This document shows positions 477-59,076 of a stretch of DNA of 64,000 nt, one piece after another. Each line of letters opens with the position of its first letter. Positions within the stretch are counted from its first letter, which is position 1. Under the pieces are notes generated by a model that did not search any database, had not been told where the DNA came from, and worked only from the letters and a program-made list of their open reading frames with translations. The translations under genes were made by a program, and so were the position numbers. Origin of the DNA: a virus (lineage: Duplodnaviria; Heunggongvirae; Uroviricota; Caudoviricetes); the IMG/VR virus record IMGVR_UViG_3300047476_001337, positions 10,296 to 74,295 of that record. One strand, given 5' to 3'.

Positions 477-484
477 CAAAGATA
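477..484 (-). promoter_or_regulatory. Bacteroidota-type -7 promoter box TATCTTTG 4 nt upstream of the ATG (leaderless arrangement)
   Basis: Minus-sense TATCTTTGTGGTATG; the same cassette recurs at at least nine other starts in the window. Confidence 0.55.
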
Positions 485-508
485 ATAATTTTATTTTAAT
501 TTACCAAA

Positions 509-5500: not shown

Positions 5501-5520
5501 CTCACAAAGGTACAACAAAA

Positions 5521-5544
5521 AACCCACACTACCAAATGTGGGGG
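5521..5544. terminator. bidirectional intrinsic terminator hairpin CCCACA...TGTGGG flanked by an A-run and a T-run
   Basis: 6-bp perfect stem between the HNH gene and paralogue E. Confidence 0.5.
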
Positions 5545-6687: not shown

Positions 6688-6715
6688 CTATATGACATTA
6701 ATTTGACGTGGGGGT

Positions 6716-7252
6716 TTGGTAGTGTCAAATAGATTACCTATCTTTGTATTATGGTTCAGTCATATACTAACCATGGGCGTGGGGGCTTATGTGGTCACGG
6801 GAGAGTATACTCCGACCTGCCTTATATTTTTTTATAAGGGGTTTGGAAATGTCAAAGGTATGTTGTACCTTTGTAGTGTTATGAAGTTGATTGATTCCCC
6901 CACTCATATTAAAAGACTTAACAAGGTCATGAGGAGTAAGCTCATTGACTGTGATGTTAAATCCTTTTACTATGAATCCCTTAAGGGTTACTACTCATTA
7001 CATGTTAAGAGGGGGAATAACTATACACCCCCATCATTGTATCTTAAGTTTAATGTCACTGAGTGTCTATATAAAAACCATTATTGGGATAATAAATTAT
7101 TATCCATGTATAGTGGAAATCAAAGAATCAGGAATATTAACATATCCATTAGATATCCTATTACCGTGGAAGGTTGTCATATGTTCCTTAAACACTTTGG
7201 TATTAAGCACTATGAACTTAACAAGACTATGATTGTTTGGCCCACTCGTTAA
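6716..7252 (+). CDS. doubtful plus-strand ORF (TTG start) inside the DnaA-box-flanked segment
   Basis: Only support is ORF length. A plus-strand TATCTTTG box at 6739..6746 abuts an out-of-frame ATG at 6751, giving a 28-aa ORF. Confidence 0.2.
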   Translation: MVVSNRLPIFVLWFSHILTMGVGAYVVTGEYTPTCLIFFYKGFGNVKGMLYLCSVMKLIDSPTHIKRLNKVMRSKLIDCDVKSFYYESLKGYYSLHVKRGNNYTPPSLYLKFNVTECLYKNHYWDNKLLSMYSGNQRIRNINISIRYPITVEGCHMFLKHFGIKHYELNKTMIVWPTR

Positions 7253-13781: not shown

Positions 13782-14525
13782 TTATTTATATTTCCAAATA
13801 AAACCACCCGATGTTTTTTGTTTATGTCTCAAACATCCATTTATTGATTTGTAGCATAAATTTAATTCTTTCGATGCTTTTAACGCGTTAACCCATTCTT
13901 TTATAAATTTACCATCTAATGAGTATTGTAAAACAGGTTTGGATTTTACATGAGGTAATCCAGTACGGGTCAGGTATCTTTTATAATTGTTATTATCACC
14001 TTTCGCAGAATCGCTCATCTTGTTTTTAGTTTCAAGTGATTTTGATTTACCTTTTGAAGATTCGCTCATTTTCTTTTTTGTTTCATTAGTAACTTTTTTA
14101 CCAATTGCGGATTTACTCATCTTCAATTTGGTTTCCTCATTGTGTTTTTTACCGTACCAAAACGGTTTTAACACACCATTTACAACCAATTCATCGTCTT
14201 TAGATATTCTAAAAACTTTACCATTTTCATCAACATATTGCCCTAACCCTACAGTTTTGAACCCAACACCTGGAATGTGAGCGTTTTTATTTAATTTATC
14301 GGAACGATGAGTGATAATCAATTTTCGTTCATAACTAATACATTGTTCTCTATCTTGAAAATCAAATTTGATTATAGTTTTTACCAATGTTTTTTTATCA
14401 GGTTTCCAAGATTTCATAGAACCCAAATAATAAATGTCTTTATTGGGTTCAACTTTGGAGGTTCTGCTTCCGAAGTAATACTCCCCTGTTTCAGGTAATT
14501 CTAATTTATAAACATAATGATACAT
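13782..14525 (-). mobile_element. GIY-YIG homing endonuclease (Seg/I-TevI-like) with three NUMOD3 repeats and a C-terminal NUMOD1/IENR1 HTH
   Basis: N-terminal YVYKL...GEYYFGS (GIY-YIG), repeats ETKLKMSKSAIGKK / TKKKMSESSKGKS / ETKNKMSDSAKG, and a C-terminal VLQYSLDGKFIKEW...GGFIWKY. I placed the start at MYHYVYKL; the track N-terminus is hydrophobic junk. Confidence 0.8.
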
Positions 14526-14571
14526 ACACAATAAATATATCATGACATTCAAAAAAACAATTTTAAGAAAA

Positions 14572-15180
14572 TTAAAGTGAATTAGGGTAATATAATAAAG
14601 TGGGATTCTTTTTAGCAATATCAGGCACATCACCTTGTAATGACATAATCTTATTGAACTCCATTACGTCAAATCTACCTGTGATTAAATGAAAACCATT
14701 TTTGGTTGGGATAGTTGCGTATATTTTATTTCCTTCGGGTCTACATTCATTAACAAGCCTCATAATCCTTAAAAGGACTTCCTCATCTTTCATATCAACA
14801 TCAACAATCCATCTCTTCTCTTGGGTTTTGATTTGACCAACAACCGAATCAAATAAGCCTTTTTGGTTAGTTTGACCATTTTGTAGTCTTTGAGCTAATT
14901 CAACCATCATATTAAAAGATACATCTTTGTGGTTTTGTTTTTGAACATGAATGTAAGCACGAGCTTTGAACATCTCACAAAGTTGTTTAATCTCATCATA
15001 CCTACGCTCAAGATGTCCAATACTTTCAATACAATAAGTCTTAATTGTTCTTACCGATTGGTGGTTATCTCTTTCACCCTCAGGTTGGTCTTTCTTTCTC
15101 TTGAATACATAAAGCATGTAGAAGTCACCTTTATCAGTGAAGTTCAAAAGTGGTTTAATTATTTCTAAGTTATCAATCAT
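14572..15180 (-). CDS. hypothetical protein (202 aa)
   Basis: Long ORF with no recognisable motif. Confidence 0.55.
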   Translation of the reverse strand: MIDNLEIIKPLLNFTDKGDFYMLYVFKRKKDQPEGERDNHQSVRTIKTYCIESIGHLERRYDEIKQLCEMFKARAYIHVQKQNHKDVSFNMMVELAQRLQNGQTNQKGLFDSVVGQIKTQEKRWIVDVDMKDEEVLLRIMRLVNECRPEGNKIYATIPTKNGFHLITGRFDVMEFNKIMSLQGDVPDIAKKNPTLLYYPNSL

Positions 15181-16557: not shown

Positions 16558-17307
16558 TTATAGTTCTGTTGTTGGTTTAAGCCATAATCCCTTCCCAAAC
16601 ATAATTTCTAATATCTTTGGGTTAGTATATTTAATTTTTTCAAATAAGTCCAATGTTTTCAATGTATCATGTTTCATCATCTTGAATATCTCATCTCTAA
16701 TTCTTTCCTGTGATACAACTTGTTCAAGTTTGTTAACAATATCATCAACATGACATGTTTCCCATATTCTTGGTGAAATGTCAAATCCTTTGGTAATTGA
16801 GAATCTAAACGCTCTCAACAATCTCAATGGGTCATCCAACATGGTTGTCCATGCGGTTTGTGGTGTCATAAGAATTTTGTTCTCCAAAGCCCACATACCA
16901 TCAAACATATCAATAATATTACCATCTTCGTCTTTTGCCAATGCGTTTAAGGTAAAATCCCTACGAATCAAATCGTCTCTCAACGTGCCAGGAACCACCA
17001 TTGGTTGTCTTGTATCAGGAATGTATCCAACTTCTTTACGAGCCATTACAAAGTCCGCTACACCTTGATATTTGTGGTCTTTTGGAAACTTTGCTCTGAT
17101 GGTAAAACAATCAGGAGTAATCAAGAAGATTTCAAATCCTTTACTTCTTAAGTATGTCTCAAGGATTGAGAACATGGTGTCCGCATAGGTGATTTTTTCT
17201 AATAAACCTTCATCAGGAACCGCAACGTAATCAATGTCTTTGGATTTCAATCCAAGAAGTTCGTCTCTGACGCAACCACCTACTTCATAAAACTTAAATT
17301 CTTCCAT
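16558..17307 (-). CDS. cca: tRNA nucleotidyltransferase (CCA-adding enzyme, minimal head domain)
   Basis: GGCVRDELLG...DIDY, RRDFTLNA and DDPLRLLRAFRF match the polymerase-beta-type CCA enzyme head domain. Confidence 0.85.
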   Translation of the reverse strand: MEEFKFYEVGGCVRDELLGLKSKDIDYVAVPDEGLLEKITYADTMFSILETYLRSKGFEIFLITPDCFTIRAKFPKDHKYQGVADFVMARKEVGYIPDTRQPMVVPGTLRDDLIRRDFTLNALAKDEDGNIIDMFDGMWALENKILMTPQTAWTTMLDDPLRLLRAFRFSITKGFDISPRIWETCHVDDIVNKLEQVVSQERIRDEIFKMMKHDTLKTLDLFEKIKYTNPKILEIMFGKGLWLKPTTEL

Positions 17308-21816: not shown

Positions 21817-21895
21817 CCGACTCTATGTTCGGGTGGACCTCAATCACAAGGTGTATCAATAATTATATTCAATAATTGTTTTGTGTAAATAAAAA

Positions 21896-21916
21896 ACCCC
21901 CACAATTAGTGAGGGT
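21896..21916 (-). terminator. intrinsic terminator ACCCCCACAATTAGTGAGGGT
   Basis: A 21-mer identical to 22866..22886, flanked by A- and T-runs, directly after the stop of 21924..22799. Confidence 0.55.
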
Positions 21917-21923
21917 TCCAAAT

Positions 21924-22799
21924 TTATTTTTTTATTTCTTTTCTGCGGGTTCCATCATCATAGATATAAATAAGAACCTCATCTTCTCTAATATGTTTCA
22001 CAGGTCTACCTAACATATCATATACACCGATTACTTTAGGTTCACGAGTAGTCATAGTTAGGTCTTCTGTCTTAAGGGTTACACATGGGTCAATTGTGAG
22101 ACGCCTTAGCATAATTGTATCATTATTGAAACACCAATTCATCCAATAGGACACTAATACATATCTACCTGGTTTAGTAAACTTGTAATTAATAAATCTT
22201 GCAGCGTCCATAGAATCAAATTTAGAATACACAATGCAATTCTGATTACGTGAGGTCCATTCCCAAATAGCACTGTCTGTTCCGTGCACCCATTGACTAT
22301 CTGAAATACTGTTAAGTTTTGCATCTCCAAAGTATAACTCCATCATATAAGTCCAACAGTAGTCAGTTTTAGGTACGGATTTCGTCATCTGACCATCTAT
22401 TGAATCTTTGCATTTAGGGTCGTATGTTGAACCCAATTGGTAAGAAAATTGACATTGAGTGAAGTAATCATAAGTCAACACATCGCTGTAAATTATAGTG
22501 TCACATCCTGTACATTTGTTTGTAAGTTTTAAGTTAAACCTATATTTACCTTTGCTTCTAAAATAAACATAGGCTTTAGTTCCTTGCTTCATTAAGTAGG
22601 GTGATTCTTTTCCGTTACTTAGGTCGATGAGATTATAATCATACTTTACGCAAGTATCCTTGAATACATCACCTTTTAGTAACCATAAATAGTAATTATT
22701 AGAACCCATCTGGTCAATTTTGATAGAACCCCATGTACATTTTGCATTTGCTGTTGCTAAGGAGACCAAAAGCATTAACAGCGATATTAGTTTTTTCAT
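21924..22799 (-). CDS. secreted protein with an N-terminal signal peptide (291 aa, Cys-rich)
   Basis: MKKLISLLMLLVSLATANA signal peptide; multiple cysteines. Confidence 0.6.
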   Translation of the reverse strand: MKKLISLLMLLVSLATANAKCTWGSIKIDQMGSNNYYLWLLKGDVFKDTCVKYDYNLIDLSNGKESPYLMKQGTKAYVYFRSKGKYRFNLKLTNKCTGCDTIIYSDVLTYDYFTQCQFSYQLGSTYDPKCKDSIDGQMTKSVPKTDYCWTYMMELYFGDAKLNSISDSQWVHGTDSAIWEWTSRNQNCIVYSKFDSMDAARFINYKFTKPGRYVLVSYWMNWCFNNDTIMLRRLTIDPCVTLKTEDLTMTTREPKVIGVYDMLGRPVKHIREDEVLIYIYDDGTRRKEIKK

Positions 22800-22865: not shown

Positions 22866-22886
22866 ACCCCCACAATTAGTGAGGGT
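22866..22886 (-). terminator. intrinsic terminator ACCCCCACAATTAGTGAGGGT (overlaps the stop codon of 22876..23076)
   Basis: Identical 21-mer to 21896..21916. Confidence 0.5.
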
Positions 22887-23076
22887 TTTCTTTTTTATAT
22901 CTTTTCCATTCTATCCAAAATCCTGTTGCAACTATCAGGTTCATTCCTAAAGACATTGATATCTCATATATGTCTTTATATACATTCATTGTGAGGTGTA
23001 TGTGACCCACAACCCAAAATGGTATTGAGAGGTTACTTGCTATCCAAACAATCAAATACGTGATGAACTTACGCAT
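22876..23076 (-). CDS. small membrane protein (66 aa, two predicted TM helices)
   Basis: Hydrophobic stretches LIVWIASNLSIPFWVVG and LIVATGFWI. Confidence 0.5.
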   Translation of the reverse strand: MRKFITYLIVWIASNLSIPFWVVGHIHLTMNVYKDIYEISMSLGMNLIVATGFWIEWKRYKKENPH

Positions 23077-23437
23077 AGTGTTTAACCAAGATGTGACCGC
23101 TTTTATAATTGGTCGCTAATGGAATATCATGTACATCACATAGTCTCAATAACATTTGGACATCAGGTTCATGTGGATGTCTGTCCAATGGGTCTCTGAA
23201 GAATATTACACCTTCAAGTTCGCCTTTGGCAACCATTGCACCTATCTCAGCATCTCCACCCATTGGTCCCGAGTTAACTGTCTGAACTTTCTCAACACCT
23301 GCGTGTTTGATTCTTTTACCTGTTGTACCTGTGGCAACAATCTCCACATCAGGTCGATTAAAGAAGTCCAATCGTTTCATAACAAAGGCAACCATGTCAG
23401 CCTTTTTTCCATCGTGAGCAATAAGGGCAAATTTCAT
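23069..23437 (-). CDS. mgsA: methylglyoxal synthase homologue (122 aa)
   Basis: FALIAHDGKK, VATGTTG, SGPMGGDAEIGAMV and IFFRDPL...PHEPDV...LLRL...IPLATN line up with E. coli MgsA (IALVAHD, ATGTTG, SGPMGGDQQVGALI, IFFWDPL..PHDPDV..LLRLA..IPVATN). Confidence 0.85.
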   Translation of the reverse strand: MKFALIAHDGKKADMVAFVMKRLDFFNRPDVEIVATGTTGKRIKHAGVEKVQTVNSGPMGGDAEIGAMVAKGELEGVIFFRDPLDRHPHEPDVQMLLRLCDVHDIPLATNYKSGHILVKHYA

Positions 23438-23440
23438 ATA

Positions 23441-23713
23441 TTAAATTTCTTCTTCAGTTGGTTCTGTTGGATTCAAAATTACCGTTTCACCTTCAGCAAT
23501 GTCTTCAGTACATGGTGCAATGTGAACTTGGTTATCTTTCCTGAACACAATAACTTTATTAATGTCTTCAAGTCCAGGTATTTTAGTTGTTTCATTTAAG
23601 TCAACAATAATTCCTTGGTCTTCATCTAATATCAATCCTAAAGCTTTAGCGAATATCATCGATGCCTTGTACCAATCTTGTTGATTTTGATTTGGGTCTG
23701 TAGTATTTTCCAT
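23441..23713 (-). CDS. hypothetical acidic protein (90 aa)
   Basis: ORF 3 nt upstream of the mgsA-like gene. Confidence 0.5.
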   Translation of the reverse strand: MENTTDPNQNQQDWYKASMIFAKALGLILDEDQGIIVDLNETTKIPGLEDINKVIVFRKDNQVHIAPCTEDIAEGETVILNPTEPTEEEI

Positions 23714-23766: not shown

Positions 23767-24081
23767 ATGAATTTATTTGAAGAATCTATTAGAATGAAAA
23801 AATTAATGATGTTGGAACAAACATCAGATGAAACGTACATGAAAGATTTTTCTGCAGGTAATTTTGATAAACTAAAAGAGTTGTTATTAAACAACAAAGA
23901 ATTGTTAACCAAGTTACAAGAATTACTTAAAACAAAATCAGTTGAAGAAACTGAACAGGTTTTATTAAAACCAAATAAAACCATATTAATACGTGGTATG
24001 GCAGATGCCAAAACAAAGAAAGATATGGACTTTTATCAGTTTTTAGAAATATTCTTAAAGAATGTTGAATCTTTATCTTAA
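23767..24081 (+). CDS. hypothetical protein on the plus strand (start placed at MNLFEESIR)
   Basis: Sits in a gap of the minus-strand array and is convergent with the rmlC-like gene. Confidence 0.45.
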   Translation: MNLFEESIRMKKLMMLEQTSDETYMKDFSAGNFDKLKELLLNNKELLTKLQELLKTKSVEETEQVLLKPNKTILIRGMADAKTKKDMDFYQFLEIFLKNVESLS

Positions 24082-24629
24082 AACTGTAACTCTTTTTCAA
24101 TCTCAGCCAGTCGTGGAAGGACTCTGTCTTTCTCTGATATTATTAGTTCATTAATATCAACACCCCAATCTATATTCAATTCCTCATCCTTAAAGTTAAT
24201 TCCACCATCGGTTGTTGACATGTATAACTCATCACATTTATAATGGAATACAGCGTGTTCTGATAGTGTTAAGAACCCATGAGCAAATCCTTTTGGGATA
24301 AACATCATCTTTTTATTTTCTTCAGATAACTTAACACCAAACCATTGTTTATAAGTCTCAGATGATTTTCTTAAATCAACAACAACATCATAAATTTCAC
24401 CAACAATACATCTAACCAATTTAGCCTGTGGTGCCATGGTTTGAAAATGTAATCCTCTTAAAACATTTTTGGTACTGTAAGACTGATTGTCCTGTACAAA
24501 GTTTGTATATATCCCTTTTTCCCTGAAGAATCTTTGGTTATAACTTTCATAAAAATAACCTCTATCATCAGGATAAATGGTGGGTGTCAAGATTAACAAA
24601 TCTTTTATACCAGTCTCTTCAACTTTCAT
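24078..24629 (-). CDS. rmlC: dTDP-4-dehydrorhamnose 3,5-epimerase (RmlC, cupin)
   Basis: Near-colinear with E. coli RmlC: FVQDNQSYS..NVLRGLHFQ, KLVRCIVGEIYDVVVDLRK, FIPKGFAHGF..LSE, DRVLPRLAE. Confidence 0.85.
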   Translation of the reverse strand: MKVEETGIKDLLILTPTIYPDDRGYFYESYNQRFFREKGIYTNFVQDNQSYSTKNVLRGLHFQTMAPQAKLVRCIVGEIYDVVVDLRKSSETYKQWFGVKLSEENKKMMFIPKGFAHGFLTLSEHAVFHYKCDELYMSTTDGGINFKDEELNIDWGVDINELIISEKDRVLPRLAEIEKELQF

Positions 24630-24631
24630 GA

Positions 24632-25192
24632 TTAATCAGTTACATCGGTCAAATACTGACCTGATTTTAATTTAACTTTGTATGGATATGGCGATGGTTC
24701 AATTGAATCAATCTCATCCATCCAAGTGTCCCAATTTTTATCCAATAACTTGATAAAGTCATCGTTGTTTCCTCTATCTTTATATCGTTGGATATATTCA
24801 TCTTTAAGACTTCTATCAGGATAAACCAAAACAAATGGAATACCTTTTTTGATTAAACTGTCTCTAACATCTTTATGTGATGATACCAGAATCTTGTCAA
24901 CCTTAGGGTCTTCAATATTTCTTTCAATGTGTTCAATGTAGTTTGCTGGAAAGTTTTTCTTATCAAACTTAGAACTATCACTATCTAACACATTTTTTTG
25001 TGTTGTATTAAAATAAGTTGTTTTTCCAACCCCTGGGAACGCAGAATATACTTTTGTTTTCATAGTTTTATACTTTCGTAAACCATAACCAATAATTTCC
25101 TCATTGTCAATTAACGAACAAATCTCAACCTTAAATAATTTTCTTAAGATAGGGTTAAATGTTCTTTTAATCCATGTTGAGTGTGATTTCAT
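24632..25192 (-). CDS. P-loop nucleotide/nucleoside kinase
   Basis: Walker A motif AFPGVGKTT; the N-terminal 43 aa may be an extension; packed 2 nt from the ThyA homologue. Confidence 0.55.
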   Translation of the reverse strand: MKSHSTWIKRTFNPILRKLFKVEICSLIDNEEIIGYGLRKYKTMKTKVYSAFPGVGKTTYFNTTQKNVLDSDSSKFDKKNFPANYIEHIERNIEDPKVDKILVSSHKDVRDSLIKKGIPFVLVYPDRSLKDEYIQRYKDRGNNDDFIKLLDKNWDTWMDEIDSIEPSPYPYKVKLKSGQYLTDVTD

Positions 25193-25194
25193 TA

Positions 25195-26253
25195 TTAGTT
25201 ACTTAAAGGTGCTTTAATTGCTGGGTGTGATTGATAATCTATAAGGTAAAAATCATCAGGAACAAAGTCTGTTAAATTTTTATCATACTCACCTTCTCTA
25301 TAGTCCATACCTAATTTAGGTAACTCAAACGGCTCTCTATCAATCTGTTCTTTAGCTTGTTCAATATGATTCAGATATAAATGAACATCACCTAAGTTAC
25401 CAATTAATTCATCAGGTACCATATTAACTTCTTTAGCAATGATTTTAAGTAATAGACCATAAGAAGCAATGTTGAACGGTAAACCTAAGAATGTATCTAC
25501 TGAACGTTGATTCCACATTAAAGAGATTGCTCGTTTAGGGATATGTTCGTAGTAATTATCTATCGTATAATGAACTTCATCATACTTATCATCAGGATAC
25601 ATCATAGGTCTCATTGCAATAATAAAGTTTTTCTTTTCTGATTCCGATAATAAATTGTATCTTTCATCACTACTCAACTCTCTTGTATAAACTTGAAATC
25701 CATAATGACAAGGTGGAAGAACCATTTGGTCTAATTCACCTACATTCCAAGCATTAACCATTAAACGTCTTGAATCTGGATTTGTTTTAAGGTCGTTGAT
25801 TAGGTTTGCGATTTGGTCAATGCCCCAAGTATGGTTTGGATTTGCTGACCAGTCTCTCCATTGCTTACCATAAATTGGACCTAACTCACCCCACGTATTG
25901 GCAAACTCATCATTGGTCTTAATTTTATAAATAAACCAATCCATAGTTCCAACCTCTTCAGTGTCTTGATGTTTTACATAATTCTTGTAAGCATCACCAT
26001 TCCAAATATGACAACCATTCTCAACAAGGAACCTAATGTTTGTATCACCACGAAGGAACCATAATAACTCGGTCACCATAGTTTTCCAAGCCATTTTCTT
26101 GGTTGTGAGTAATGGAAATCCATCACTCATTTTATGACGAATAGTATAACCAAATATTGATTTGGTTCCTGTTCCTGTTCTATCTTTCTTTTCAACTCCA
26201 AAATCAATGATATCTTGAAGTAATTGTTGGTATTGTTTATCTAATTTATTCAT
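25195..26253 (-). CDS. thyA: thymidylate synthase (ThyA) homologue with insertions (352 aa), possibly a dUMP hydroxymethylase
   Basis: DRTGTGTKSIFG, LLWFLRGDTN, GPIYGKQWR, DSRR...NAWN, catalytic LPPCH, LGLPFNIASY (Asn retained, so a uracil substrate). It is ~90 aa longer than canonical ThyA. Confidence 0.8.
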   Translation of the reverse strand: MNKLDKQYQQLLQDIIDFGVEKKDRTGTGTKSIFGYTIRHKMSDGFPLLTTKKMAWKTMVTELLWFLRGDTNIRFLVENGCHIWNGDAYKNYVKHQDTEEVGTMDWFIYKIKTNDEFANTWGELGPIYGKQWRDWSANPNHTWGIDQIANLINDLKTNPDSRRLMVNAWNVGELDQMVLPPCHYGFQVYTRELSSDERYNLLSESEKKNFIIAMRPMMYPDDKYDEVHYTIDNYYEHIPKRAISLMWNQRSVDTFLGLPFNIASYGLLLKIIAKEVNMVPDELIGNLGDVHLYLNHIEQAKEQIDREPFELPKLGMDYREGEYDKNLTDFVPDDFYLIDYQSHPAIKAPLSN

Positions 26254-28498: not shown

Positions 28499-31400
28499 TT
28501 ATCGTAATAGTGTAAAGGTTCCATTATATTGGAATACTTTATCCTCCATTGATGTTACAAATATTTTATAAACATACACACCGTCAGGAGCCTGTTTACC
28601 TAAATAATTACCATCCCAACCTCTATTAAGGTCAGTTGTTTCATACATCTTTTCACCCCAACGATTATAAACACCCATATAATATGTTTTGTTGTTTATA
28701 ACTTGTGGTCTGAATGTATTGTTTTCATTTGGTCCTGCATCATCAGGTGTAAAAGCATCTGGTACAAATATAATAATATCAGGACCAATTACAACTCTTT
28801 GTAAAGAAGAATCTTTACAACCTTTATCTGTGGTAACAACTAATTTAATCCAATAAGTGCCCGTGTCTTTTCCAAATATAATGTTTGAGTTCTTAAGCGT
28901 ATCACTACCAATCTTAAATGTTTTACCCCAACCCCAATTGTATTTCATATTGGTAATGAATGGGTTTTGACTAACACTTGATGTATTAATAGTTTTGAAC
29001 TTAGGTAACGCCACAGTTGTTTTGTATAACGGGTCAGTAGTGAACACAACACTTGGTTTTGGATAAACTTCAAATGTTTTTGTGATAGATGTTCCACATA
29101 TCTTTTCAGGAAAGAATGTATTGTTAATCGCAGTTAATGATGTTCTGTAATAACCAAAATTGTTAAACGTTTTTGACCAACTAAGATTATTTCTTAAAAA
29201 GAAGGTATCATTTACCACCCACGAATAATCAATTGATTTTATTCCACGTTTCTCAATTGGTGTGAATGTTGAAAAATGTGGTTGACATCCATTTGTTGTG
29301 ATGAAGTCAGGTTCAGGATAAGGTGTAATTAAAACCTTGATACTATCAATTACTTTAGAACAAAGTGGAGCGTTCCAAGATTTGAATTTAACTGTAAAGT
29401 ACCCATTAGCAGTATCTTTGTCTGATGGTATGTATTGTTTTTTACCAAAACCTTTAGTTCCACCAATCACTTGACCACCAGGAGGTGTTAATGTATCATA
29501 AAGACCAGTATTAACCACCCATCTAAATTTAACTGCAGGGTCAATATTTGCCGTATCTAACTTGAGAGTCCAAGTATCTTTACCACAACTTACAAATGGT
29601 GGAACAAATTTAATCTCAGGTTGATTCATTACTGTAAGTTTTAATATCTCAGTATCTTTACAACCATATTGACTTTCCCCAACCATCATAAGTTTGTAAG
29701 GATTATTAAAACCTCCAATATATCCTCTTGCCTTCGGTGTTGGTGTAAAAAATCCTGCATCAGGGTAAATTATTTTTGTCACACCAAAACTACCAGCAGT
29801 TATTACATTTTTCAAATCATATGGCCAAGGGTAGGTAGAACAAAAACCCATATCCATAACCTTCAAGTCAGGTTTATAACTAATAACAACGTCAAAGCTA
29901 TCCACTTTTGAACAAGTAATTGATTGGTCAGGAGATGTAATATTACTTACAAACTTAATGTTATAAGTCCCCACACCTATGCTAGTTTTGAATATACCTG
30001 TTGATATGTCTGTTGATACTTTAGGGTCATTTCTATCCCCATTTCTATCCTGAATAAAGATGGTACCTTTGGTAGGTTTAACCCCATCTACCAAAATGTA
30101 ATCAAATAAATTGATATTCACACCTGAGTTTTCACAATAAAGAGGTACGGTTGTCAATTCAACTCTTGGTTCCGTAATAACGTTGACATCCACTGTATCT
30201 GTACTTTGACAACCTGTAATCAAATCTTTAACGGTAAGTTTGAAAGTATACAAACCTTTGTAAAAATCCTGTGAAGGTGCACCAAAGTTAAACTTAATAT
30301 TTGGAATTGAGTTTGTAGAAACATTATATAGTAATTTAGATGTGTCGACGCCATTAGGTGCTCTAACAACTTCCCATAACATGTACACACCATTTTTTGT
30401 TGCGGGTCTTACTCTCAAGTTATCCATCATCAAAAATCCAATGTCTTGACACACCGTAGCCTTTCTTAATTGAATAATTGGTGTACCATATATGGTTTGT
30501 GTTGTCGAATCTATATTAGAACAACCATTTGTGTCGTTGAACTTAACATATATTTTTGTGGTGTAGTTGTTTCCACCTTGTAATTTATTATTGTCTACTG
30601 ATATTGTGTTGAATAAGAACCTTCCATTATTAAGATAAGTAACAATATTACCAGTCTTATTTTTAGTTCCACTCCAAATATCATAAGTTCCAAAATTGTG
30701 AGGTTTAACAATAAATGGTTCCATCCAAATACTACCATAAGAATAACATTGAGGTTTCAATGGTTTTGGGTCCCAACCAATTTTTGGTAATGGTTTGACT
30801 CTCACGAACATTGTGTCCATATCTTCACAAGTGTGTCCGTTTTGTGTAATAACAGTCTTCAATGTAAACATATAAGCTGATTTTGTAATATCAGATTTTA
30901 ACTTATAGGTTGACAAATTACCCAATCCACCCCAAGTATATGTTGGAGTCAATATAAATGGATTGTGAGACGCTTTTAACGTAAACGTGTCCTTATCACA
31001 GATTGCTTGGTTTGGTCCCGCATTTGACACCACAGTATCATTTACGACTAATATTGCAGTATCATATTTAACACACCTAAATCTTTTATCTGTAATTTTA
31101 ACCCAGTATGAACCCTTAAGGTTTGTTGTTAAGTATCGTGTTGTATCACCTGTGTTCCACAAATATTTAACAGTATCATTATTTTGACCATCAAATGTAT
31201 TTGTTTCATAAGTACAAATCACTTTATCTGAACCCAAACTAACTACAGGTAATGGTTTAACATATGTTAATGTAGTATCACGAAACTTACAACCATCACC
31301 ATCAGTTACTTCTAATCTTAGAGTTGAGTCAGACTTAAAGTTTTTGATTGTAGTGTAATCAGTTGTATCGCCGTTATTCCATTTATACTTTAACGTTGGT

Positions 31401-33034
31401 TTACCAGCAATTACTTTAGCCTTTAATGTGAATGTTGTACCATAACAAGCAAAACTATCAGCATCAGCAAGTATAACCTTTGGTGGTTGTTTCAGATAAA
31501 CAGTATCACTATAGATAGTAACACAAGATTGTGAACTTGTTAACTTATGAACTATAATATACTTCCCTTCATAGTAATAATTCATTGTATCAGTCTTCTT
31601 TGAAGAATAAAACAATTCCTTCGCTAAAGTATCTCTTACACTCCATGAATAACTTGATGCAGCATATATTTCATAAGCTTCCATGGCAAATCTACCACAT
31701 TTAAGTTGGGTATATCTACGTTTAGATTTTGGTTTTGGATTAACTTTAATTTTGAATGAGCGAATCGATGTTGCTGGTGGTTCACAATGTTGGTCACTTA
31801 CAGTTACTGTAAATGAATATGAAACATCAGACGCCGAACCAATTGGTGGTGTCCACTCAAACCAAGCGTATGATTTTCTTTTTTCAGGCCAATCATTCTT
31901 ACTTGCTAATGTAAACTTCGCACCAGGTATACCAGCATTCCATTTCATTGTTGTTGTATCAGGTGTTGTTTGATATGGCGTAAAAGTTTCGTCATCTGAT
32001 TCAACCTTGAATTTCAAAGTTTCACCCTCACAAACTTGGTATGTAAATTTTGGACCTAATGTTGGTGCTTTATTATAACCACAATCATCCCTAACCCATA
32101 TCTGCATGTCACGTCTTGTTCTACCAATAACTCTCCACACACCTGAGGTGTCTTTTCTCCATTCTGTTTGTTCAACACAAATAACCGCAGATTCATCACA
32201 TTTAGTAGGTGTAACAATAACATCACCATTTGTTGTATCAAAATAAAAACCTCTTGGTGGATTAGTCTTTGGGTTTGGAACACAATTAATTGTTGTTGGT
32301 GGGACACAGTATGGTGTCATTGGAACTTTGGATGTAAATGGTGAAGAATATGATACAGAACTATTTGGTATTCCTTGAAGACCATTTACTAATTTATAAG
32401 AAATTGAATCGTAATCAATCGTATCGGTAGCTCCGTTATTATAATACCAAGGCTGATTACAACATAAAAAGGCAATTGGTGGGTTTGATAATTGTGGCGA
32501 ACTATTACATTTATTCTTCATTTTTTGAAGGTTACAAATGTTTACCATGGCAGTAGCATAAAAATTTTGTGATGCTTGTCCTGTTGTTATGGCACCATTT
32601 CTACAACATTCATTTACATAAAATGTAACCTCACAACATGTTGATTTATTAACAAAGTTATTTAATGGTGATACGTTAAAATCAACTGTTGCTTCGAATG
32701 TATGTTCCTCAACACCTTTATTTGCAAACGCACTATTTGCTGTACCACATGGATTACTTGTAGTAGAACATCGTGTTGTAACATCTTTTATCGAAACTCT
32801 CGTTAACCCTGATAAAGTATAACTACCACAACCGTTACCACCATTTAGTCCAGCATATGCACCAAAACTTGGTGTTCCCATAGATACACCTCGACAATCT
32901 CGGTATACCTTTGCAATAATTTTATACTTACCATTTCCCAAACATTGGTAGGAAACATCGGCACCCATCATGTGAGTCGCCTGAACGCTCAGAAAACTGA
33001 ACAAAAACGCAAATAAAAATAGCAGTCTTTTCAT
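28499..33034 (-). CDS. giant (~1511 aa) secreted SprB/adhesin-like protein with a T9SS type-B C-terminal sorting domain (CHU_C / gliding-motility-associated CTD)
   Basis: Signal peptide MKRLLFLFAFLFSFLSVQA; start placed after the TATCTTTG box (33040..33047). The C-terminal ~90 aa (FTPDDAGPNENNTF...VYNRWGEKMY...WDGNY...GVYVYKIF...GTFTLLR) match the FTPNGDG..ND.F...IYNRWG....WDG....GVYYY signature of the type-B T9SS CTD. The body is rich in Thr/Asn/Gly/Cys/Trp repeats (beta-rich). Confidence 0.8.
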   Translation of the reverse strand: MKRLLFLFAFLFSFLSVQATHMMGADVSYQCLGNGKYKIIAKVYRDCRGVSMGTPSFGAYAGLNGGNGCGSYTLSGLTRVSIKDVTTRCSTTSNPCGTANSAFANKGVEEHTFEATVDFNVSPLNNFVNKSTCCEVTFYVNECCRNGAITTGQASQNFYATAMVNICNLQKMKNKCNSSPQLSNPPIAFLCCNQPWYYNNGATDTIDYDSISYKLVNGLQGIPNSSVSYSSPFTSKVPMTPYCVPPTTINCVPNPKTNPPRGFYFDTTNGDVIVTPTKCDESAVICVEQTEWRKDTSGVWRVIGRTRRDMQIWVRDDCGYNKAPTLGPKFTYQVCEGETLKFKVESDDETFTPYQTTPDTTTMKWNAGIPGAKFTLASKNDWPEKRKSYAWFEWTPPIGSASDVSYSFTVTVSDQHCEPPATSIRSFKIKVNPKPKSKRRYTQLKCGRFAMEAYEIYAASSYSWSVRDTLAKELFYSSKKTDTMNYYYEGKYIIVHKLTSSQSCVTIYSDTVYLKQPPKVILADADSFACYGTTFTLKAKVIAGKPTLKYKWNNGDTTDYTTIKNFKSDSTLRLEVTDGDGCKFRDTTLTYVKPLPVVSLGSDKVICTYETNTFDGQNNDTVKYLWNTGDTTRYLTTNLKGSYWVKITDKRFRCVKYDTAILVVNDTVVSNAGPNQAICDKDTFTLKASHNPFILTPTYTWGGLGNLSTYKLKSDITKSAYMFTLKTVITQNGHTCEDMDTMFVRVKPLPKIGWDPKPLKPQCYSYGSIWMEPFIVKPHNFGTYDIWSGTKNKTGNIVTYLNNGRFLFNTISVDNNKLQGGNNYTTKIYVKFNDTNGCSNIDSTTQTIYGTPIIQLRKATVCQDIGFLMMDNLRVRPATKNGVYMLWEVVRAPNGVDTSKLLYNVSTNSIPNIKFNFGAPSQDFYKGLYTFKLTVKDLITGCQSTDTVDVNVITEPRVELTTVPLYCENSGVNINLFDYILVDGVKPTKGTIFIQDRNGDRNDPKVSTDISTGIFKTSIGVGTYNIKFVSNITSPDQSITCSKVDSFDVVISYKPDLKVMDMGFCSTYPWPYDLKNVITAGSFGVTKIIYPDAGFFTPTPKARGYIGGFNNPYKLMMVGESQYGCKDTEILKLTVMNQPEIKFVPPFVSCGKDTWTLKLDTANIDPAVKFRWVVNTGLYDTLTPPGGQVIGGTKGFGKKQYIPSDKDTANGYFTVKFKSWNAPLCSKVIDSIKVLITPYPEPDFITTNGCQPHFSTFTPIEKRGIKSIDYSWVVNDTFFLRNNLSWSKTFNNFGYYRTSLTAINNTFFPEKICGTSITKTFEVYPKPSVVFTTDPLYKTTVALPKFKTINTSSVSQNPFITNMKYNWGWGKTFKIGSDTLKNSNIIFGKDTGTYWIKLVVTTDKGCKDSSLQRVVIGPDIIIFVPDAFTPDDAGPNENNTFRPQVINNKTYYMGVYNRWGEKMYETTDLNRGWDGNYLGKQAPDGVYVYKIFVTSMEDKVFQYNGTFTLLR

Positions 33035-33039
33035 ATCTT

Positions 33040-33047
33040 CAAAGATA
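33040..33047 (-). promoter_or_regulatory. -7 promoter box TATCTTTG just upstream of the adhesin ATG
   Basis: Minus-sense TATCTTTGAAGATATGAAAAGA. Confidence 0.5.
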
Positions 33048-33093
33048 GACAAAATTTTTGACAAAATTGCATTATGACTGTAAAAAAATAAAA

Positions 33094-34090: not shown

Positions 34091-34378
34091 TTATTTTGTA
34101 ACTAACGCTTCGATTTTAGACTTAACCAACTCAGTCATAGATACTTCAGATACGTTGGTCATGATAACTGAATCCTTTAAGATACGAAAAGGGATGTGAC
34201 TCAAGAAGTCTTCACCATTGAAGAAGTCAAAATCAGACTTGTGAGCCATACAACCATCCACCAAACGAAGGAATAGTTTGAATTGGTCACCACTTGAAAA
34301 TGTCTCGTTCAACAAAGTACCCATTGACTCGTGTACAATCTTGATGTTAAATCCCTTATTCATAATACAAAGATACAA
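34091..34378 (-). CDS. hypothetical protein (95 aa)
   Basis: ORF in the same-strand array. Confidence 0.5.
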   Translation of the reverse strand: MYLCIMNKGFNIKIVHESMGTLLNETFSSGDQFKLFLRLVDGCMAHKSDFDFFNGEDFLSHIPFRILKDSVIMTNVSEVSMTELVKSKIEALVTK

Positions 34379-34400
34379 TTAGTTTTTGAATTACCAAACT

Positions 34401-35426
34401 TTATTTTTCAGATAACAAAAATTTGTTTGAGATTGCTTTGAAAGAGATTGTGTTATCCAATGAACGAACAACAACACCTTCACGTTCGGTAAGCTTATTC
34501 AAACGAGATTTGTCTTCAGCCAGTTTCAACATACCTTCAACAGTATCAGGTAATAAGAATGCCACATCCAAGATTGGAACGGATAACAATTCTAACTCAT
34601 CCAATAAGATTAAGAAGTCATTGATGTTCATTCTTGTTTGTGTATCAATATCAAACCCATTGAAGAAGTGAACTGTCTGACCTTTGATTTTATATGGGTT
34701 ACCTTGGATACCTTCACCAATCAACTCACCTTGTAGACAGATGTTTCCTTTATCTTTCAATTTGTTTTCCAAGTCAAGTTCACGGGCAACTTTCCAAAAA
34801 GTATTTCCTTCAGTTTCCAATAACTCAAGGTTACGAGAACATACACCGAACACACCATCATTCATGTAGAATGTTGCAGATGAACCATCCAACTTTTCAG
34901 TCATGTAGAACTGATGTTTAGATGTTAACTTATATTCTTCATACTCCTTAACCAAGTTCTGAATTCTTTCCTCATCAGTCTTACGTAAGAAAGATGGGAA
35001 CCCACCTTTTACTTTACCAGATAGTTCAGCAGGAATTGGTGGTTCGTATTTCACAATACCCAACATTTCGGTAACATCCATACCTTCAGGTAAATCATGT
35101 CCTGTTGCAAATTGTACAATTGGAACAACACTAATTGGAAGAATAAGTCCTTGGGAGACTTGTCCACGAAGTTTAATTGTCTTCAAACGGAAACCTTCTT
35201 GGTCATCCATTTTTTTGTAAGATGATTTACGTAAAAACTCAAACTCTTCCCTGATAGGTAAGAATGAATCAATTTCACAGTAAACTACTTTGTCACCAAT
35301 CTTATGCCCAACATTTTTGGCAACAACAACATTCCATCCGCCAACAGATGCCAATTCAATCATGTCCGCACCTTCAATAGGTCGAATGTCTGTAATTTCT
35401 CTAATAGTCGCTAACTTTCTTTCCAT
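34401..35426 (-). CDS. RNA ligase-like nucleotidyltransferase with an N-terminal OB-like domain (Rnl5/DraRnl-like architecture)
   Basis: Adenylyltransferase motif I EKLDGSS (KxDG); the N-terminal ~110 aa (IEGADMIELASVGGWNVVV...GDKVVYCEIDS) look like an OB fold. I could not distinguish an RNA from a DNA ligase by eye. Confidence 0.55.
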   Translation of the reverse strand: MERKLATIREITDIRPIEGADMIELASVGGWNVVVAKNVGHKIGDKVVYCEIDSFLPIREEFEFLRKSSYKKMDDQEGFRLKTIKLRGQVSQGLILPISVVPIVQFATGHDLPEGMDVTEMLGIVKYEPPIPAELSGKVKGGFPSFLRKTDEERIQNLVKEYEEYKLTSKHQFYMTEKLDGSSATFYMNDGVFGVCSRNLELLETEGNTFWKVARELDLENKLKDKGNICLQGELIGEGIQGNPYKIKGQTVHFFNGFDIDTQTRMNINDFLILLDELELLSVPILDVAFLLPDTVEGMLKLAEDKSRLNKLTEREGVVVRSLDNTISFKAISNKFLLSEK

Positions 35427-36205: not shown

Positions 36206-37960
36206 TTATTTGTTTACCACAACCTGATATACTATTTGGTTGTTTCCACCTTGTATGTGGAAGAAATACAATCCACTATTCAAATCAGACAAGTTTACAT
36301 TTACAAAGTTATTACCTGAGATAACATTCATTGTTGTTACCTTTCTTACCATTCTACCATTCAAATCTGTAATATACACATCAGCATTAAATCCTTTTGT
36401 CGATGTAAACTCAACGGTATATTCACCATTTGTTGGGTTAGGGTAAGAATTAACTGAAGTGATTTTACCTACTGATTTAACATGTAACACACCATATTGA
36501 CCTAAAACACCATATTCAAAGTTTGATGGGTAGTTTGTTGTTGGTCTAAAATCAGGTTGATTAAAGTCGTTTGTATTGACCAATATGCCTGGGTTGAAAG
36601 TGTTGGTATCAATAAAATTGTTGTTGATTGAATTACGAACCCAACTATCCAATAGATTTACATTACCACCTGAACTTACCTCAACCAAACCTGTATTAGT
36701 TGGTCCAACAGGTGCTGATGCTTTTACACCATAAATGTAATTGTTTCTGAACAAGTTGTTTTTATCTGAAATTATATTTGATTTAACACCTGAATTAATC
36801 AATACAGAATCACCATCAAACATTACGAAGTTTCTGTAACCCATAAAGATTGAGTTGATGATACTCAAACGAGAGTTTCTACGAATTCTTACTCCACGTC
36901 TAAATGCTCCCTTTTGTGTTGTAGTTAATTGAGACCATGTCATACCAGCAGGTACTGGACCAACACAAGTCATATTTGAGAATACTGCGGATGTCAATGG
37001 TAATCTACCTGAACCTGATGCGTCATTGTCCGATTCAAATGTTTCAGAAGTTGATGCCCCTGATGGTGCATTCCAAGACATATCATATAGTTGTGAATCC
37101 TTAAATGCAATACCAAATTGAACCGCGCCTCTGTATCCAAAGTCTGTATCAAAATCGTCATCAGTAGTTTTGAATGAGATTAGATGTTTACAGTTAACAG
37201 TACCACCAAACCATTCATACGAATCATCACCTGAGTATGAAACTTGAACATGGTCAACTGTAGTATTTCTTCCAACCGAAGCAAATGTTAATCCATTAAT
37301 TTCTTTGTTGGGTTCAAACGCCAAACCACAAAATTCAATCCTTGTATATCTGATTAGACCACTATTATCATCATCGTTGATTCCACCATGCTTTGCTAGT
37401 GTTGAGTTTGTTGAAATGTTATTAAATCCTTCAACTTGAATGTCAGTACCTTGGTTATTTCTTGCCTTACCACAGATAACGATTCCACCCCAATCACCTC
37501 TACCTTTATATCCAATATCCTTTGCCGATGTAAACACAACAGGACTATTTGAAGTTCCTTCACATGAAATATAACCACCTCTTTCAACTATAATTGTTGC
37601 ATATTGTTTTGGTGTCATACTCAAATTCGCAATACCTCTGATTATAGTTCCAGCAGGGATAATCAATTTACCACCGTCTCTAACAACAACAATACTTCTT
37701 AATACGTAAGTACGTTTTGCAACCAAAGTTACAGTTCCAGTAATTTCAACAATACCTGTTGGACTATTGAAAGCCGTAGTGTCCCATCCATAATCCGCAG
37801 CCCAATAAATGCTTTTAGGGTTCCAATGTGTCCATCCACTGGTCCAATCTTTTGATTTGTCAGCCGATAAGGCTCCAACGTAATCAACTTTCTCAAAGAA
37901 TTGAGCATGTCCTGTAATACACAACAAGACCGATAATAATGTAAAAATTATTTTTTTCAT
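36206..37960 (-). CDS. secreted beta-helix-like protein (584 aa) with a T9SS type-A C-terminal sorting domain (Por_Secre_tail)
   Basis: Signal peptide MKKIIFTLLSVLLCITGHAQ. The C-terminal ~80 aa (SYPNPTNGEYTVEF...ADVYITDLNGRMVRKV...LSDLNSGLYFFHIQGGNNQIVYQVVVNK) match the type-A T9SS CTD. Gly/Asn/Asp/Thr-rich repeats in the middle suggest a parallel beta-helix, which would fit a depolymerase or lyase. Confidence 0.8.
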   Translation of the reverse strand: MKKIIFTLLSVLLCITGHAQFFEKVDYVGALSADKSKDWTSGWTHWNPKSIYWAADYGWDTTAFNSPTGIVEITGTVTLVAKRTYVLRSIVVVRDGGKLIIPAGTIIRGIANLSMTPKQYATIIVERGGYISCEGTSNSPVVFTSAKDIGYKGRGDWGGIVICGKARNNQGTDIQVEGFNNISTNSTLAKHGGINDDDNSGLIRYTRIEFCGLAFEPNKEINGLTFASVGRNTTVDHVQVSYSGDDSYEWFGGTVNCKHLISFKTTDDDFDTDFGYRGAVQFGIAFKDSQLYDMSWNAPSGASTSETFESDNDASGSGRLPLTSAVFSNMTCVGPVPAGMTWSQLTTTQKGAFRRGVRIRRNSRLSIINSIFMGYRNFVMFDGDSVLINSGVKSNIISDKNNLFRNNYIYGVKASAPVGPTNTGLVEVSSGGNVNLLDSWVRNSINNNFIDTNTFNPGILVNTNDFNQPDFRPTTNYPSNFEYGVLGQYGVLHVKSVGKITSVNSYPNPTNGEYTVEFTSTKGFNADVYITDLNGRMVRKVTTMNVISGNNFVNVNLSDLNSGLYFFHIQGGNNQIVYQVVVNK

Positions 37961-42225: not shown

Positions 42226-42246
42226 ACCACAAAGATAAACAAAAAA

Positions 42247-42268
42247 CCCGAGACTTCAAAATCTCGGG
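42247..42268 (-). terminator. intrinsic terminator CCCGAGActtcaaaaTCTCGGG after the nadV stop
   Basis: Perfect 7-bp stem flanked by A- and T-runs; a sister hairpin lies at 46839..46860. Confidence 0.6.
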
Positions 42269-42275
42269 TCATTTT

Positions 42276-43805
42276 TTATTTCAATAGAGACCTAATCTGT
42301 GTCAGTGTCGTTTCATTATGAAACTCTCCGTTGAAGTATATTGTTCTTAGTTCTCCAGAATTTTCCGTTTTCCAATCACAATGGTCAATCAACTCATAGG
42401 TACCATCGTTTTCGTTTTCAAAAACCGCCAACAAACCAGTTGCGGATTTTTTAGTTCCATCATCAGTAATTGGGTCTTTGAAGATTTCTCTACCAACAAT
42501 TTTAGTGTTTAATCCTTGGTCAATCATATCACCGTATACAGGTTCTTGAAGTTCTACATAAGTTGCTTTCATTGCGAAACCAAATGTGTCACGGGTATTG
42601 TATTGGTATGTGAATGAACCGATACCTAATACTACGTTTGTAGATGCGAAACCTTTAGCTTCTAAACGTCTACAAATCTCATCCGCCCTTTCAATAGTGA
42701 TTGAGTCACCATAGATTGCTCCTATGTGTGGGTCAAGAACTTTGTAACCTTGTTCGTTAATTGTTCCACCAAATACATCCCATAGTAATTCGATTACACC
42801 TTTTTCTCTTACTTTATATGACTTATGGTAATCTTCACCTGTACTACTATCATAAGCTTTCAAGGTACCACAAAGAATATCTACTGGGTCACCTGAATCA
42901 GGACGAATAACCAATTTACCATCACGAGCCAAAATCTCGTCTTTCAATGTAACCACGTGCTCGGTACATACTTTCCATAAGTCCCAAGTGTCCGATACAA
43001 CTGAAAGAATACCTTTAGGATATGTATTCAACAATCTACGGAATGTTTCAACTTCATCTTCTTTGGTTCCCGCACACATTACAGAGTGTTCTGTTGCCGG
43101 TACTGAACCACAAACAAACTCAGTTTCACCATAGTATTTACGTGCTCCATAGATAGTTGGTAATGAATCTGAACCGAAGAATGAAGTTAAGTGACCAAGA
43201 CCTGAACTGATGGTTGCTTCCGCCGAATCCATACCTCTCATTGAGAAGTCGTGTCCTTGCCAATCAATGAACCAAGCATTTTCTTTATCGGTTTTTTCCA
43301 TCCACTTAGTCAATACCTTACGATATTGGTTAGCAATGGTTGCTGATGTCATTGGTTTCCACATTAAGTTAGACAAAAGGGTTTCCAAATAGTTGGTCAA
43401 CCAATAGAAATCAGGATGTGTATTGTAGATAGTCAACACAGGTACCTTAATTGGAACTTTCTTACCTTCAGTAATACTTTTTACAATGATTGGTAGGTAA
43501 CCCAAGTCATGTAATTTTTCAATGTGTGTTACATCATAATCAGTTCCCAAGTACATGGACAACTCACGTTTAACTTCACCACAAACCACGTCTTTTGGTT
43601 GATAGAAAAACCCTTCTTGGAACATTTCATGGATTTGTTTCATAACCATTTGACTTCCAAAGACAACAACTTGGTCACACCCTTTTGGTGCGTACTTGTT
43701 ACTTCTTGGTGTGAAGTTGGAATACACTAAGGTAGTTCCTTCAGGGTATTGTTGGTGATGGCCAGTCTTGTAGCCATCTGTCAATAAAAATGGATTTATT
43801 TTCAT
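42276..43805 (-). CDS. nadV: nicotinamide phosphoribosyltransferase (NadV/NAMPT)
   Basis: MKINPFLLTDGYKTGHHQQYP..., 509 aa, typical NAMPT length and N-terminal signature. Confidence 0.85.
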   Translation of the reverse strand: MKINPFLLTDGYKTGHHQQYPEGTTLVYSNFTPRSNKYAPKGCDQVVVFGSQMVMKQIHEMFQEGFFYQPKDVVCGEVKRELSMYLGTDYDVTHIEKLHDLGYLPIIVKSITEGKKVPIKVPVLTIYNTHPDFYWLTNYLETLLSNLMWKPMTSATIANQYRKVLTKWMEKTDKENAWFIDWQGHDFSMRGMDSAEATISSGLGHLTSFFGSDSLPTIYGARKYYGETEFVCGSVPATEHSVMCAGTKEDEVETFRRLLNTYPKGILSVVSDTWDLWKVCTEHVVTLKDEILARDGKLVIRPDSGDPVDILCGTLKAYDSSTGEDYHKSYKVREKGVIELLWDVFGGTINEQGYKVLDPHIGAIYGDSITIERADEICRRLEAKGFASTNVVLGIGSFTYQYNTRDTFGFAMKATYVELQEPVYGDMIDQGLNTKIVGREIFKDPITDDGTKKSATGLLAVFENENDGTYELIDHCDWKTENSGELRTIYFNGEFHNETTLTQIRSLLK

Positions 43806-48630: not shown

Positions 48631-48864
48631 TTATATTTTAATTTCTATTATTTTTCCTTGTTTAACTCTTTCTTCAATTTCAATTTCATCAACACATTGA
48701 GCGTAGGCGGATTTCAATGACCGCCCACCCCAATCTTTATTTGTTATTGAACTAGTAATCCAATTGTCATCATTCCACAATGATGTCCATCCGTGTAACT
48801 TAACAACCTCAATCATTTCTTCTTTTGTTACAACTTTTTCCATTCCGGTTTTATTATGTTCCAT
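48631..48864 (-). CDS. hypothetical protein (77 aa)
   Basis: ORF whose start overlaps the end of the ligase gene. Confidence 0.45.
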   Translation of the reverse strand: MEHNKTGMEKVVTKEEMIEVVKLHGWTSLWNDDNWITSSITNKDWGGRSLKSAYAQCVDEIEIEERVKQGKIIEIKI

Positions 48865-58943: not shown

Positions 58944-59076
58944 CTTCTATATAAGTTTTACGTGAATCAACATGGTCATTGATTGAATAACCAGTATTCA
59001 ATCCACAACTTACACATTTTTCAATATTACTGTCGCCCATTTGAATTAATAAATTTGATTTCTTCAGTTGGTACAT
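58858..59076 (-). CDS. small zinc-ribbon protein (72 aa)
   Basis: CVSCG...CADC cysteine pairs; overlaps both neighbours, so it is uncertain. Confidence 0.35.
   Translation of the reverse strand: MYQLKKSNLLIQMGDSNIEKCVSCGLNTGYSINDHVDSRKTYIEGAGQLCADCFKEVYQKTHKKDVDTNEKP

Follow-up and report, generated by a model that had tools for sequence, protein, structure and literature searches.

Known phage auxiliary metabolic genes (AMGs) for phosphate or central carbon metabolism include pstS, phoH, talC and CP12 of cyanophages. To our knowledge, no member of this set makes a toxic electrophile. The toxicity of methylglyoxal, the product of methylglyoxal synthase (MgsA), is established biochemistry. 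MgsA works as a homohexamer that phosphate inhibits allosterically. The biochemical reference for MgsA is the Escherichia coli enzyme (structures 1b93, 1egh and 1ik4), in which, from the Saadat and Harrison structures, we take the catalytic base to be Asp71 and His98, acting with His19 and Asp101, and in which the phosphoryl group is bound by Lys23, Thr45, Thr47, Thr48, Ser65 and Gly66. In this enzyme, a salt bridge between Arg150 and Asp20 passes the phosphate signal between subunits, and P92, R107 and V111 are residues of one proposed allosteric signal path (PMC4133812). The short, tail-less MGS of Thermus shows a lower phosphate cooperativity, with a Hill coefficient of 1.5 versus 3.4, and the bacterial methylglyoxal bypass is considered important under phosphate shortage, with triose phosphates accumulating (PMC4133812). 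Among viruses, mgsA appears in the AMG tables of at least three virome papers, which file it under propanoate or methane metabolism (PMC8066274, PMC12397222, bioRxiv 10.1101/2024.01.25.577265). The mgsA gene described here lies in a 64-kb stretch of an IMG/VR virus record, the whole of which was analysed and is referred to as the window.

The gene occupies 23069..23437 on the minus strand (369 bp, 122 aa), with an ATG start that matches the start of bacterial Bacteroidota MgsA proteins (MKIALIAHD...) and a TAA stop at 23071-23069. A sequence-only reading of the window had identified the ORF as a methylglyoxal synthase from six motifs, all of which are present in the translation: AHD at residues 7-9, ATGTTG at 35-40, GPMGGD at 57-62, IFFRDPL at 78-84, PHEPDV at 88-93 and IPLATN at 105-110. 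The identification is borne out by profile searches and by comparison with solved structures. The Pfam MGS-like domain (PF02142), the model named in that reading as the one to search with, matches with an E-value of 8.8e-16 (58.3 bits, cutoff 24.1), and the NCBIfam equivalog for methylglyoxal synthase, NF003559, scores 151.1 bits over residues 2-120 against a cutoff of 84. TIGR00160 falls marginally under its cutoff (144.9 versus 146.9 bits), a shortfall that probably reflects the short N- and C-termini of the protein. Residues 1-119 align with eleven distinct solved MgsA sequences at E-values of 1e-22 to 1e-35, those of 8u2v, 2x8w, 1wo8 and 6f2c at about 1e-33 to 1e-35. On this similarity, the ORF is predicted to be a full-length, bona fide MgsA (EC 4.2.3.3). 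An antisense ORF of 147 aa (23156..23599, plus strand) overlaps mgsA and is long for a GC content of 33%; nothing supports it, and it probably reflects no more than the codon composition of mgsA.

The closest described enzymes are of the short form, represented by Thermus sp. GH5 and T. thermophilus (2x8w, 1wo8), Bacillus subtilis (6f2c) and 8u2v, with which the window MgsA aligns over its full length. It shares with them the length class of 120-135 aa, the catalytic Asp and His and the phosphate-binding Thr, Ser, Gly and Lys residues, and neither they nor the window enzyme possess the Arg150 helix. Unlike these bacterial enzymes, the window MgsA is phage-encoded, belongs to a separate clade and carries two signature residues, E64 and Y111. 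The match to the E. coli enzyme (E-value 8e-24) provides counterparts for 12 active-site residues as well as for P92, R107 and V111, but the window protein lacks the 11-residue N-terminal extension and about 21 C-terminal residues, including Arg150. The E. coli numbering was fixed by the range of the 1b93 match (query 3-118, chain 14-127) and the residue alignment. H8, D9 and K12 correspond to His19, Asp20 and Lys23; T36, T38 and T39 to Thr45, Thr47 and Thr48; S56, G57 and D62 to Ser65, Gly66 and Asp71; and D82, H89 and D92 to Asp91, His98 and Asp101. All 12 of these catalytic and phosphate-binding residues are intact in the window MgsA, so that the conservation of the catalytic Asp and His, raised in the sequence-only reading as a point to be checked, proved to be without substitutions. 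In 63 non-redundant viral coding sequences, 11 of the 12 are invariant, among them D62, H89, H8 and D92; of the phosphoryl-binding residues K12, T36, T38, T39, S56 and G57, only T38 varies, being replaced by N in one copy. In a large part of the viral clade (loci L102-L113, L129-L168), the segment reading PHEPDVQML in the window and most bacteria reads PHDVDISML, with the catalytic His and Asp kept but their surrounding residues changed.

These data bear on the suggestion that the protein has an MGS-like fold with a non-catalytic or different role, such as regulatory binding or the use of another phosphate ester as substrate. The MGS-like domain does occur as a non-MgsA module in other enzymes, PF02142 being a domain family, and the TIGR00160 score lies 2 bits under its cutoff. 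Nevertheless, the similarity is full-length and at the equivalog level (NF003559), identity reaches about 50% with several solved MgsA structures and 58-73% with bacterial MgsA among the matches listed, and every catalytic or substrate-binding residue is kept, which makes such a role very improbable.

With regard to regulation, P83, R98 and V102, the counterparts of E. coli P92, R107 and V111, are invariant in the 63 viral coding sequences, and in the alignment to the E. coli enzyme the window MgsA lacks the Arg150-bearing C-terminal helix, which makes phosphate inhibition sharper in E. coli. By analogy with the short Thermus enzyme, phosphate may inhibit the window MgsA less strictly. The tail is likewise missing from the MgsA proteins of Bacteroidota bacteria, which are just as short (120-126 aa), and its absence is therefore a lineage trait and no phage-specific adaptation.

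The window has a GC content of 33% and no tRNA genes. A simple ORF tiling of the 64 kb assigns 89% of it to coding sequence and places 92 of the 104 ORFs on the minus strand. At E-values up to 1e-8, 42 PHROG families match 74 window ORFs, and the PHROG and Pfam matches include two T4-type RNA ligases, one of which matches 2399 phage records, endonuclease VII, a homing endonuclease, thymidylate synthase (ThyA), DHFR, NAMPT, PRPP synthetase, a NUDIX protein, a tRNA nucleotidyltransferase, DNA methyltransferases and guanylate kinase. Phage-family genes lie on both sides of mgsA across the 64 kb, and likewise in IMG/VR contigs, one of which (L089) has 19 proteins in common with the window. No virion structural genes were identified within the 64 kb, and for this reason the window looks like the early or auxiliary part of some large genome. 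Judged from its sequence, the window is phage DNA. At the DNA level, its sole match among phage records is to a short piece of the ThyA gene in Flavobacterium phage immuto, which was rejected as a close relative, since only ThyA (55%) and a phosphoesterase (66%) are common to both (first 50 kb compared).

The host very probably belongs to the Bacteroidota, because two ORFs carry C-terminal tails of the type IX secretion system (T9SS): a 1521-aa ORF (28499..33064, minus strand) with a CHU_C sorting domain and a PKD domain, and a 584-aa ORF (36206..37960, minus strand) with a Por_Secre_tail domain. The two tails would also imply that the phage exports proteins via the T9SS of its host. A third tail, on ORF 21924..22799, was ruled out, the tails sitting on the two ORFs just named. 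The Bacteroidota promoter pattern TTTG-N17-21-TAnnTTTG occurs 14 times in the window versus 4.3 expected, a count reached by none of 100 shuffles; examples are found at 477..508 (-), 5505..5536 (-), 6715..6746 (+), 34368..34398 (-) and 42230..42260 (-), and several copies lie directly upstream of ORF starts. In addition, the nearest bacterial MgsA sequences, among the matches listed, come from Flavobacteriales and Bacteroidia.

Several other features of the window deserve mention in their own right. A set of genes for NAD salvage comprises NAMPT (42276..43805, minus strand; phrog_448, E-value 5.6e-193), a ribose-phosphate pyrophosphokinase, a NUDIX protein and a NADAR domain protein. An RNA repair kit consists of RNA ligases of phrog_968 and phrog_562, a tRNA nucleotidyltransferase and a HAD_SAK_2 protein, with ORFs at 34401..35426, 48828..49868 and 16558..17307 (all minus strand), the tRNA nucleotidyltransferase being placed at 16558..17307 by similarity to the PolyA_pol genes of contigs L005-L008. 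The 402-aa ORF 59027..60235 (minus strand) matches both glutamine synthetase domains, the catalytic one only in part (profile positions 20-155 of 344), and is predicted to be a GS-like protein that is either divergent or truncated. Among small early-type genes lies one for a NUMOD1/NUMOD3 homing endonuclease (13782..14630, minus strand), which has a homologue near mgsA in L005 and L006.

Within the window, mgsA is flanked by ORFs for which neither Pfam nor PHROG gave a family match. Upstream lies a 90-aa ORF without assigned function (23441..23713, minus strand), which is probably co-transcribed with mgsA because its stop is only 3 nt before the mgsA ATG; a gene of 90-92 aa is called at the same position in sibling contigs L170-L176. 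Farther upstream are an RmlC-type epimerase (24078..24629, minus strand), a phrog_4182 protein (24632..25192, minus strand) with a GVGKT motif resembling a Walker A site, and the thymidylate synthase homologue (25195..26253, minus strand), whose 352 aa over a 266-position model indicate an insertion and whose siblings measure 391-402 aa. Downstream, a 66-aa ORF that looks hydrophobic by eye (22876..23076, minus strand) overlaps the end of mgsA with its ATG by 8 nt. It adjoins mgsA in L089, L169, L171, L172 and L175, is separated from it by a downstream distance of about 1.1 kb in L153, occupies other places in L001, L003 and L004, and is not called beside mgsA in L173 and L174; it was rejected as a fixed partner of mgsA, since it is adjacent in close relatives only and the linkage is loose. 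The last gene of the series is a 291-aa ORF without assigned function (21924..22799, minus strand), followed by a terminator-like GC-rich hairpin with a T run (21893..21919, minus strand; 11-pair stem, 5 GC pairs). This hairpin likely ends the mgsA transcription unit, with weak support, three terminator-like sites being found in the region versus 1.6 expected. A sigma-70 promoter scan returned 25 sites versus 24.3 expected, and no exact copy of the Bacteroidota-type motif was found directly upstream of mgsA or the 90-aa ORF. In siblings whose MgsA is the same or 91% identical, a gene of 276-277 aa that encodes the core of a class II aminoacyl-tRNA synthetase (PF00152) stands next to or near mgsA (L169 1241..2074, L171 3930..4763, L175 1720..2553, L001 8245..9075); it is absent from the window, and the site is therefore one of mosaic insertion.

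Neighbours of mgsA were also clustered across 57 dereplicated viral loci (1460 ORFs), and a conserved partner gene or operon partner was rejected, as the commonest neighbour family is found in only 13 of the 57 loci. The most common families (7-13 loci each) are ThyA, an AAA ATPase, an unannotated 720-aa protein and ribonucleotide reductase, and viral mgsA copies are flanked by clamp loader, DNA polymerase, helicase, ligase, ribonucleotide reductase and ThyA genes. Hence, mgsA is a free-standing auxiliary gene, usually in the replication and nucleotide-metabolism part of these phage genomes. There being no consistent neighbour, its context says little about its role.

Relatives of the window MgsA are encoded in at least 191 IMG/VR viral contigs, the best 80 of which show 71-97% identity, many of them on contigs of 110-310 kb. 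The exact protein is indexed in 85 blocks of a public collection, under the JGI name 'methylglyoxal synthase', and it belongs to a 90%-identity cluster of 305 members, seen on contigs of up to 321 kb. The sequence-only reading knew of no described phage copy of MgsA. In view of these contigs, their JGI name and the AMG tables cited above, this is overstated as regards the mere presence of the gene; it does hold for its characterization, as no study of a phage MgsA enzyme was found in the literature searched and PHROGs has no family for MgsA. A phage record collection yielded 22 matching records, all unannotated and all below 50% identity. Some of these records are human faecal contigs labelled 'Bacteriophage sp.', and the others are entries of several contigs each under the names 'Listeria phage LM' and 'Enterococcus phage'; a part of them may represent host DNA that was present in the phage preparations. 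No earlier account appears to describe how large, coherent and selectively constrained the phage-associated MgsA clade is.

Among bacterial assemblies with one genome per species, the best MgsA matches, among those listed, are 56-75% identical, the highest being on short or doubtfully binned MAG contigs; both scans of public collections were seeded with peptide patterns of the query, which biases the sampling toward its relatives, and closer bacterial homologues could be missed. Neighbour joining placed all 60 viral and metagenomic proteins in one clade with 8 MAG sequences, and this phage-containing clade received a bootstrap value of 99/100 in a 48-sequence subset; the viral sequences alone are not monophyletic. 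Two positions set the clade apart, neither of them a known functional residue: E64, which is Q in other bacterial MgsA, and Y111, where those proteins mostly have P. One of the MAG sequences, L015, is on a 648-kb Flavobacteriales contig, and its locus is bacterial, because a sigma factor, a TonB receptor and an ArsC-like gene stand beside mgsA. L010 and L014 also look bacterial, as judged from ORF size and from having no viral protein in common. Two further MAG contigs of 62-65% GC, binned as proteobacteria (L011 and L012), encode MgsA proteins that are 73% identical and lie inside the same clade; they could reflect a cross-phylum transfer, a different phage group or mis-binning. In the simplest history compatible with these relationships, the lineage would have been taken from hosts of the Flavobacteriales/Bacteroidia type, followed by a long residence in, and exchange among, phages.

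The viral mgsA genes are under strong purifying selection, with a median pairwise dN/dS of 0.13 and a maximum of 0.28 (Nei-Gojobori, 424 pairs, dS 0.05-1.5). Between the window gene and its closest relatives, dN/dS is 0.02-0.03, dS exceeding 1 with synonymous sites near saturation. The gene has the highest GC content of the 62 window genes (41.5% versus 33%), an excess located mainly at first codon positions because the protein is rich in Gly, Ala, Asp and Val; its GC3 of 0.33 is near the window mean of 0.275, and codon usage is therefore largely adapted to the phage. A recent acquisition was rejected, given the dS above 1 among viral copies and the GC3 close to the window mean, and acquisition by phages looks old.

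The same observations allow an assessment of whether mgsA is phage-encoded at all, or whether the window is bacterial DNA or a chimeric assembly in which mgsA is a host gene or a decaying passenger. Its place as the GC-richest gene, the lack of an identified virion structural gene in the window and the few MAG sequences in the same clade, L015 with its clearly bacterial context included, would fit this explanation. Against it stand the phage-like gene layout and content over all 64 kb, the concentration of the GC excess at first codon positions with a GC3 near the mean, and the presence of mgsA in phage-like surroundings in dozens of independent contigs of up to 310 kb, and strong purifying selection speaks against a decaying passenger; we consider a non-phage origin of the locus highly unlikely. 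Our main reading, to which we assign a probability of roughly 80%, is that mgsA encodes a catalytically competent MgsA acting as an AMG in a large uncultured Bacteroidota phage, and that it belongs to an old, bacterial-derived lineage kept in many large aquatic phages.

As predicted by homology, MgsA would convert host dihydroxyacetone phosphate (DHAP) to methylglyoxal and inorganic phosphate during infection. This bypass would free phosphate locked in triose phosphates and let carbon pass the phosphate-requiring GAPDH step. A large phage DNA genome (150-300 kb, in many copies) would be a strong phosphate sink, and the supply of energy and precursors could be kept running while the phage draws cellular phosphate into DNA. 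We tentatively prefer phosphate release and GAPDH bypass as the benefit to the phage, at somewhat less than even odds, because of the established role of the bacterial methylglyoxal bypass. By our own reasoning, the DHAP pool is small compared with the phosphate need of a phage burst, so that the benefit would have to come from flux and not from the pool. No phosphate-stress families were present among the Pfam matches for the 74 window ORFs. The toxicity of methylglyoxal to DNA and proteins, those of the phage included, counts against the main reading.

This toxicity, which is also described in PMC13445646, could instead be the point of the gene, a burst of methylglyoxal arresting host growth or macromolecular synthesis, or poisoning co-infecting competitors and neighbouring cells. 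An intact and conserved enzyme is what this explanation calls for, and no detoxifying partner was found in the window or near viral copies: the Pfam matches for the 74 window ORFs include no glyoxalase, DJ-1 or other methylglyoxal-detoxifying family, and a GloA-like gene was found neither in the window nor in 168 related loci, a weak test. However, the DNA and proteins of the phage would be damaged too, mgsA resides among replication and nucleotide-metabolism genes and not among recognisable host-takeover genes, and with only E64 and Y111 distinguishing the phage clade there is no sign of re-tuning toward runaway activity. A role of methylglyoxal as a toxin is thus unlikely, and it is more doubtful still that widespread large aquatic Bacteroidota phages deliberately make the compound as an agent of host takeover or competitor exclusion and not as a mere by-product. 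Equally doubtful is a rerouting of carbon and energy from DHAP via methylglyoxal and D-lactate to pyruvate, as an overflow valve that would relieve sugar-phosphate stress independently of phosphate supply. The bypass is known as an energy-spilling route (PMC4133812, PMC12096831), and the window holds numerous further metabolic genes, namely NAMPT, PRPP synthetase, the glutamine synthetase-like ORF and guanylate kinase; on the other hand, the route depends on host glyoxalases, and no sequence feature separates it from phosphate release. Indeed, sequence alone cannot separate phosphate release, toxicity and rerouting from one another.

MgsA opens a side branch of glycolysis that trades ATP yield and toxicity for free phosphate. 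Many large phages have long retained the gene, with strong purifying selection acting on it, which implies that the branch point is of consequence in infection. If the relief of phosphate or flux is true, it would be a new mechanism among phage strategies for phosphorus shortage in lakes and seas; if toxicity is true, it would be an unusual chemical form of host control, with a chemical weapon as the product of an auxiliary gene. Given a small enzyme that is simple to assay and is available in over 60 natural variants, experiments can address the question directly. In addition, AMG pipelines at present file mgsA under methane or propanoate metabolism, which the finding corrects.

The enzyme itself is ordinary, and its presence in phages is already on record in databases and three AMG tables. 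Chromosomal Bacteroidota MgsA proteins have the same length and start as the window MgsA; those of the Flavobacteriales MAGs L015 and L013 and the Bacteroidia MAGs L010 and L014 are 67-70% identical to it and nested in the phage-containing clade, and other bacterial Bacteroidota enzymes (Algoriphagus, Saprospiraceae, Odoribacter) show 57-65% identity. The chromosomal loci have bacterial neighbours and no other protein in common with the window or the viral loci. The closest parallel in kind is with the cyanophage AMGs: like these, mgsA encodes a host-derived metabolic enzyme under selection, beside nucleotide-metabolism genes in a large, lytic-type phage genome. Unlike the cyanophage genes, it has so far figured only in automated AMG tables.
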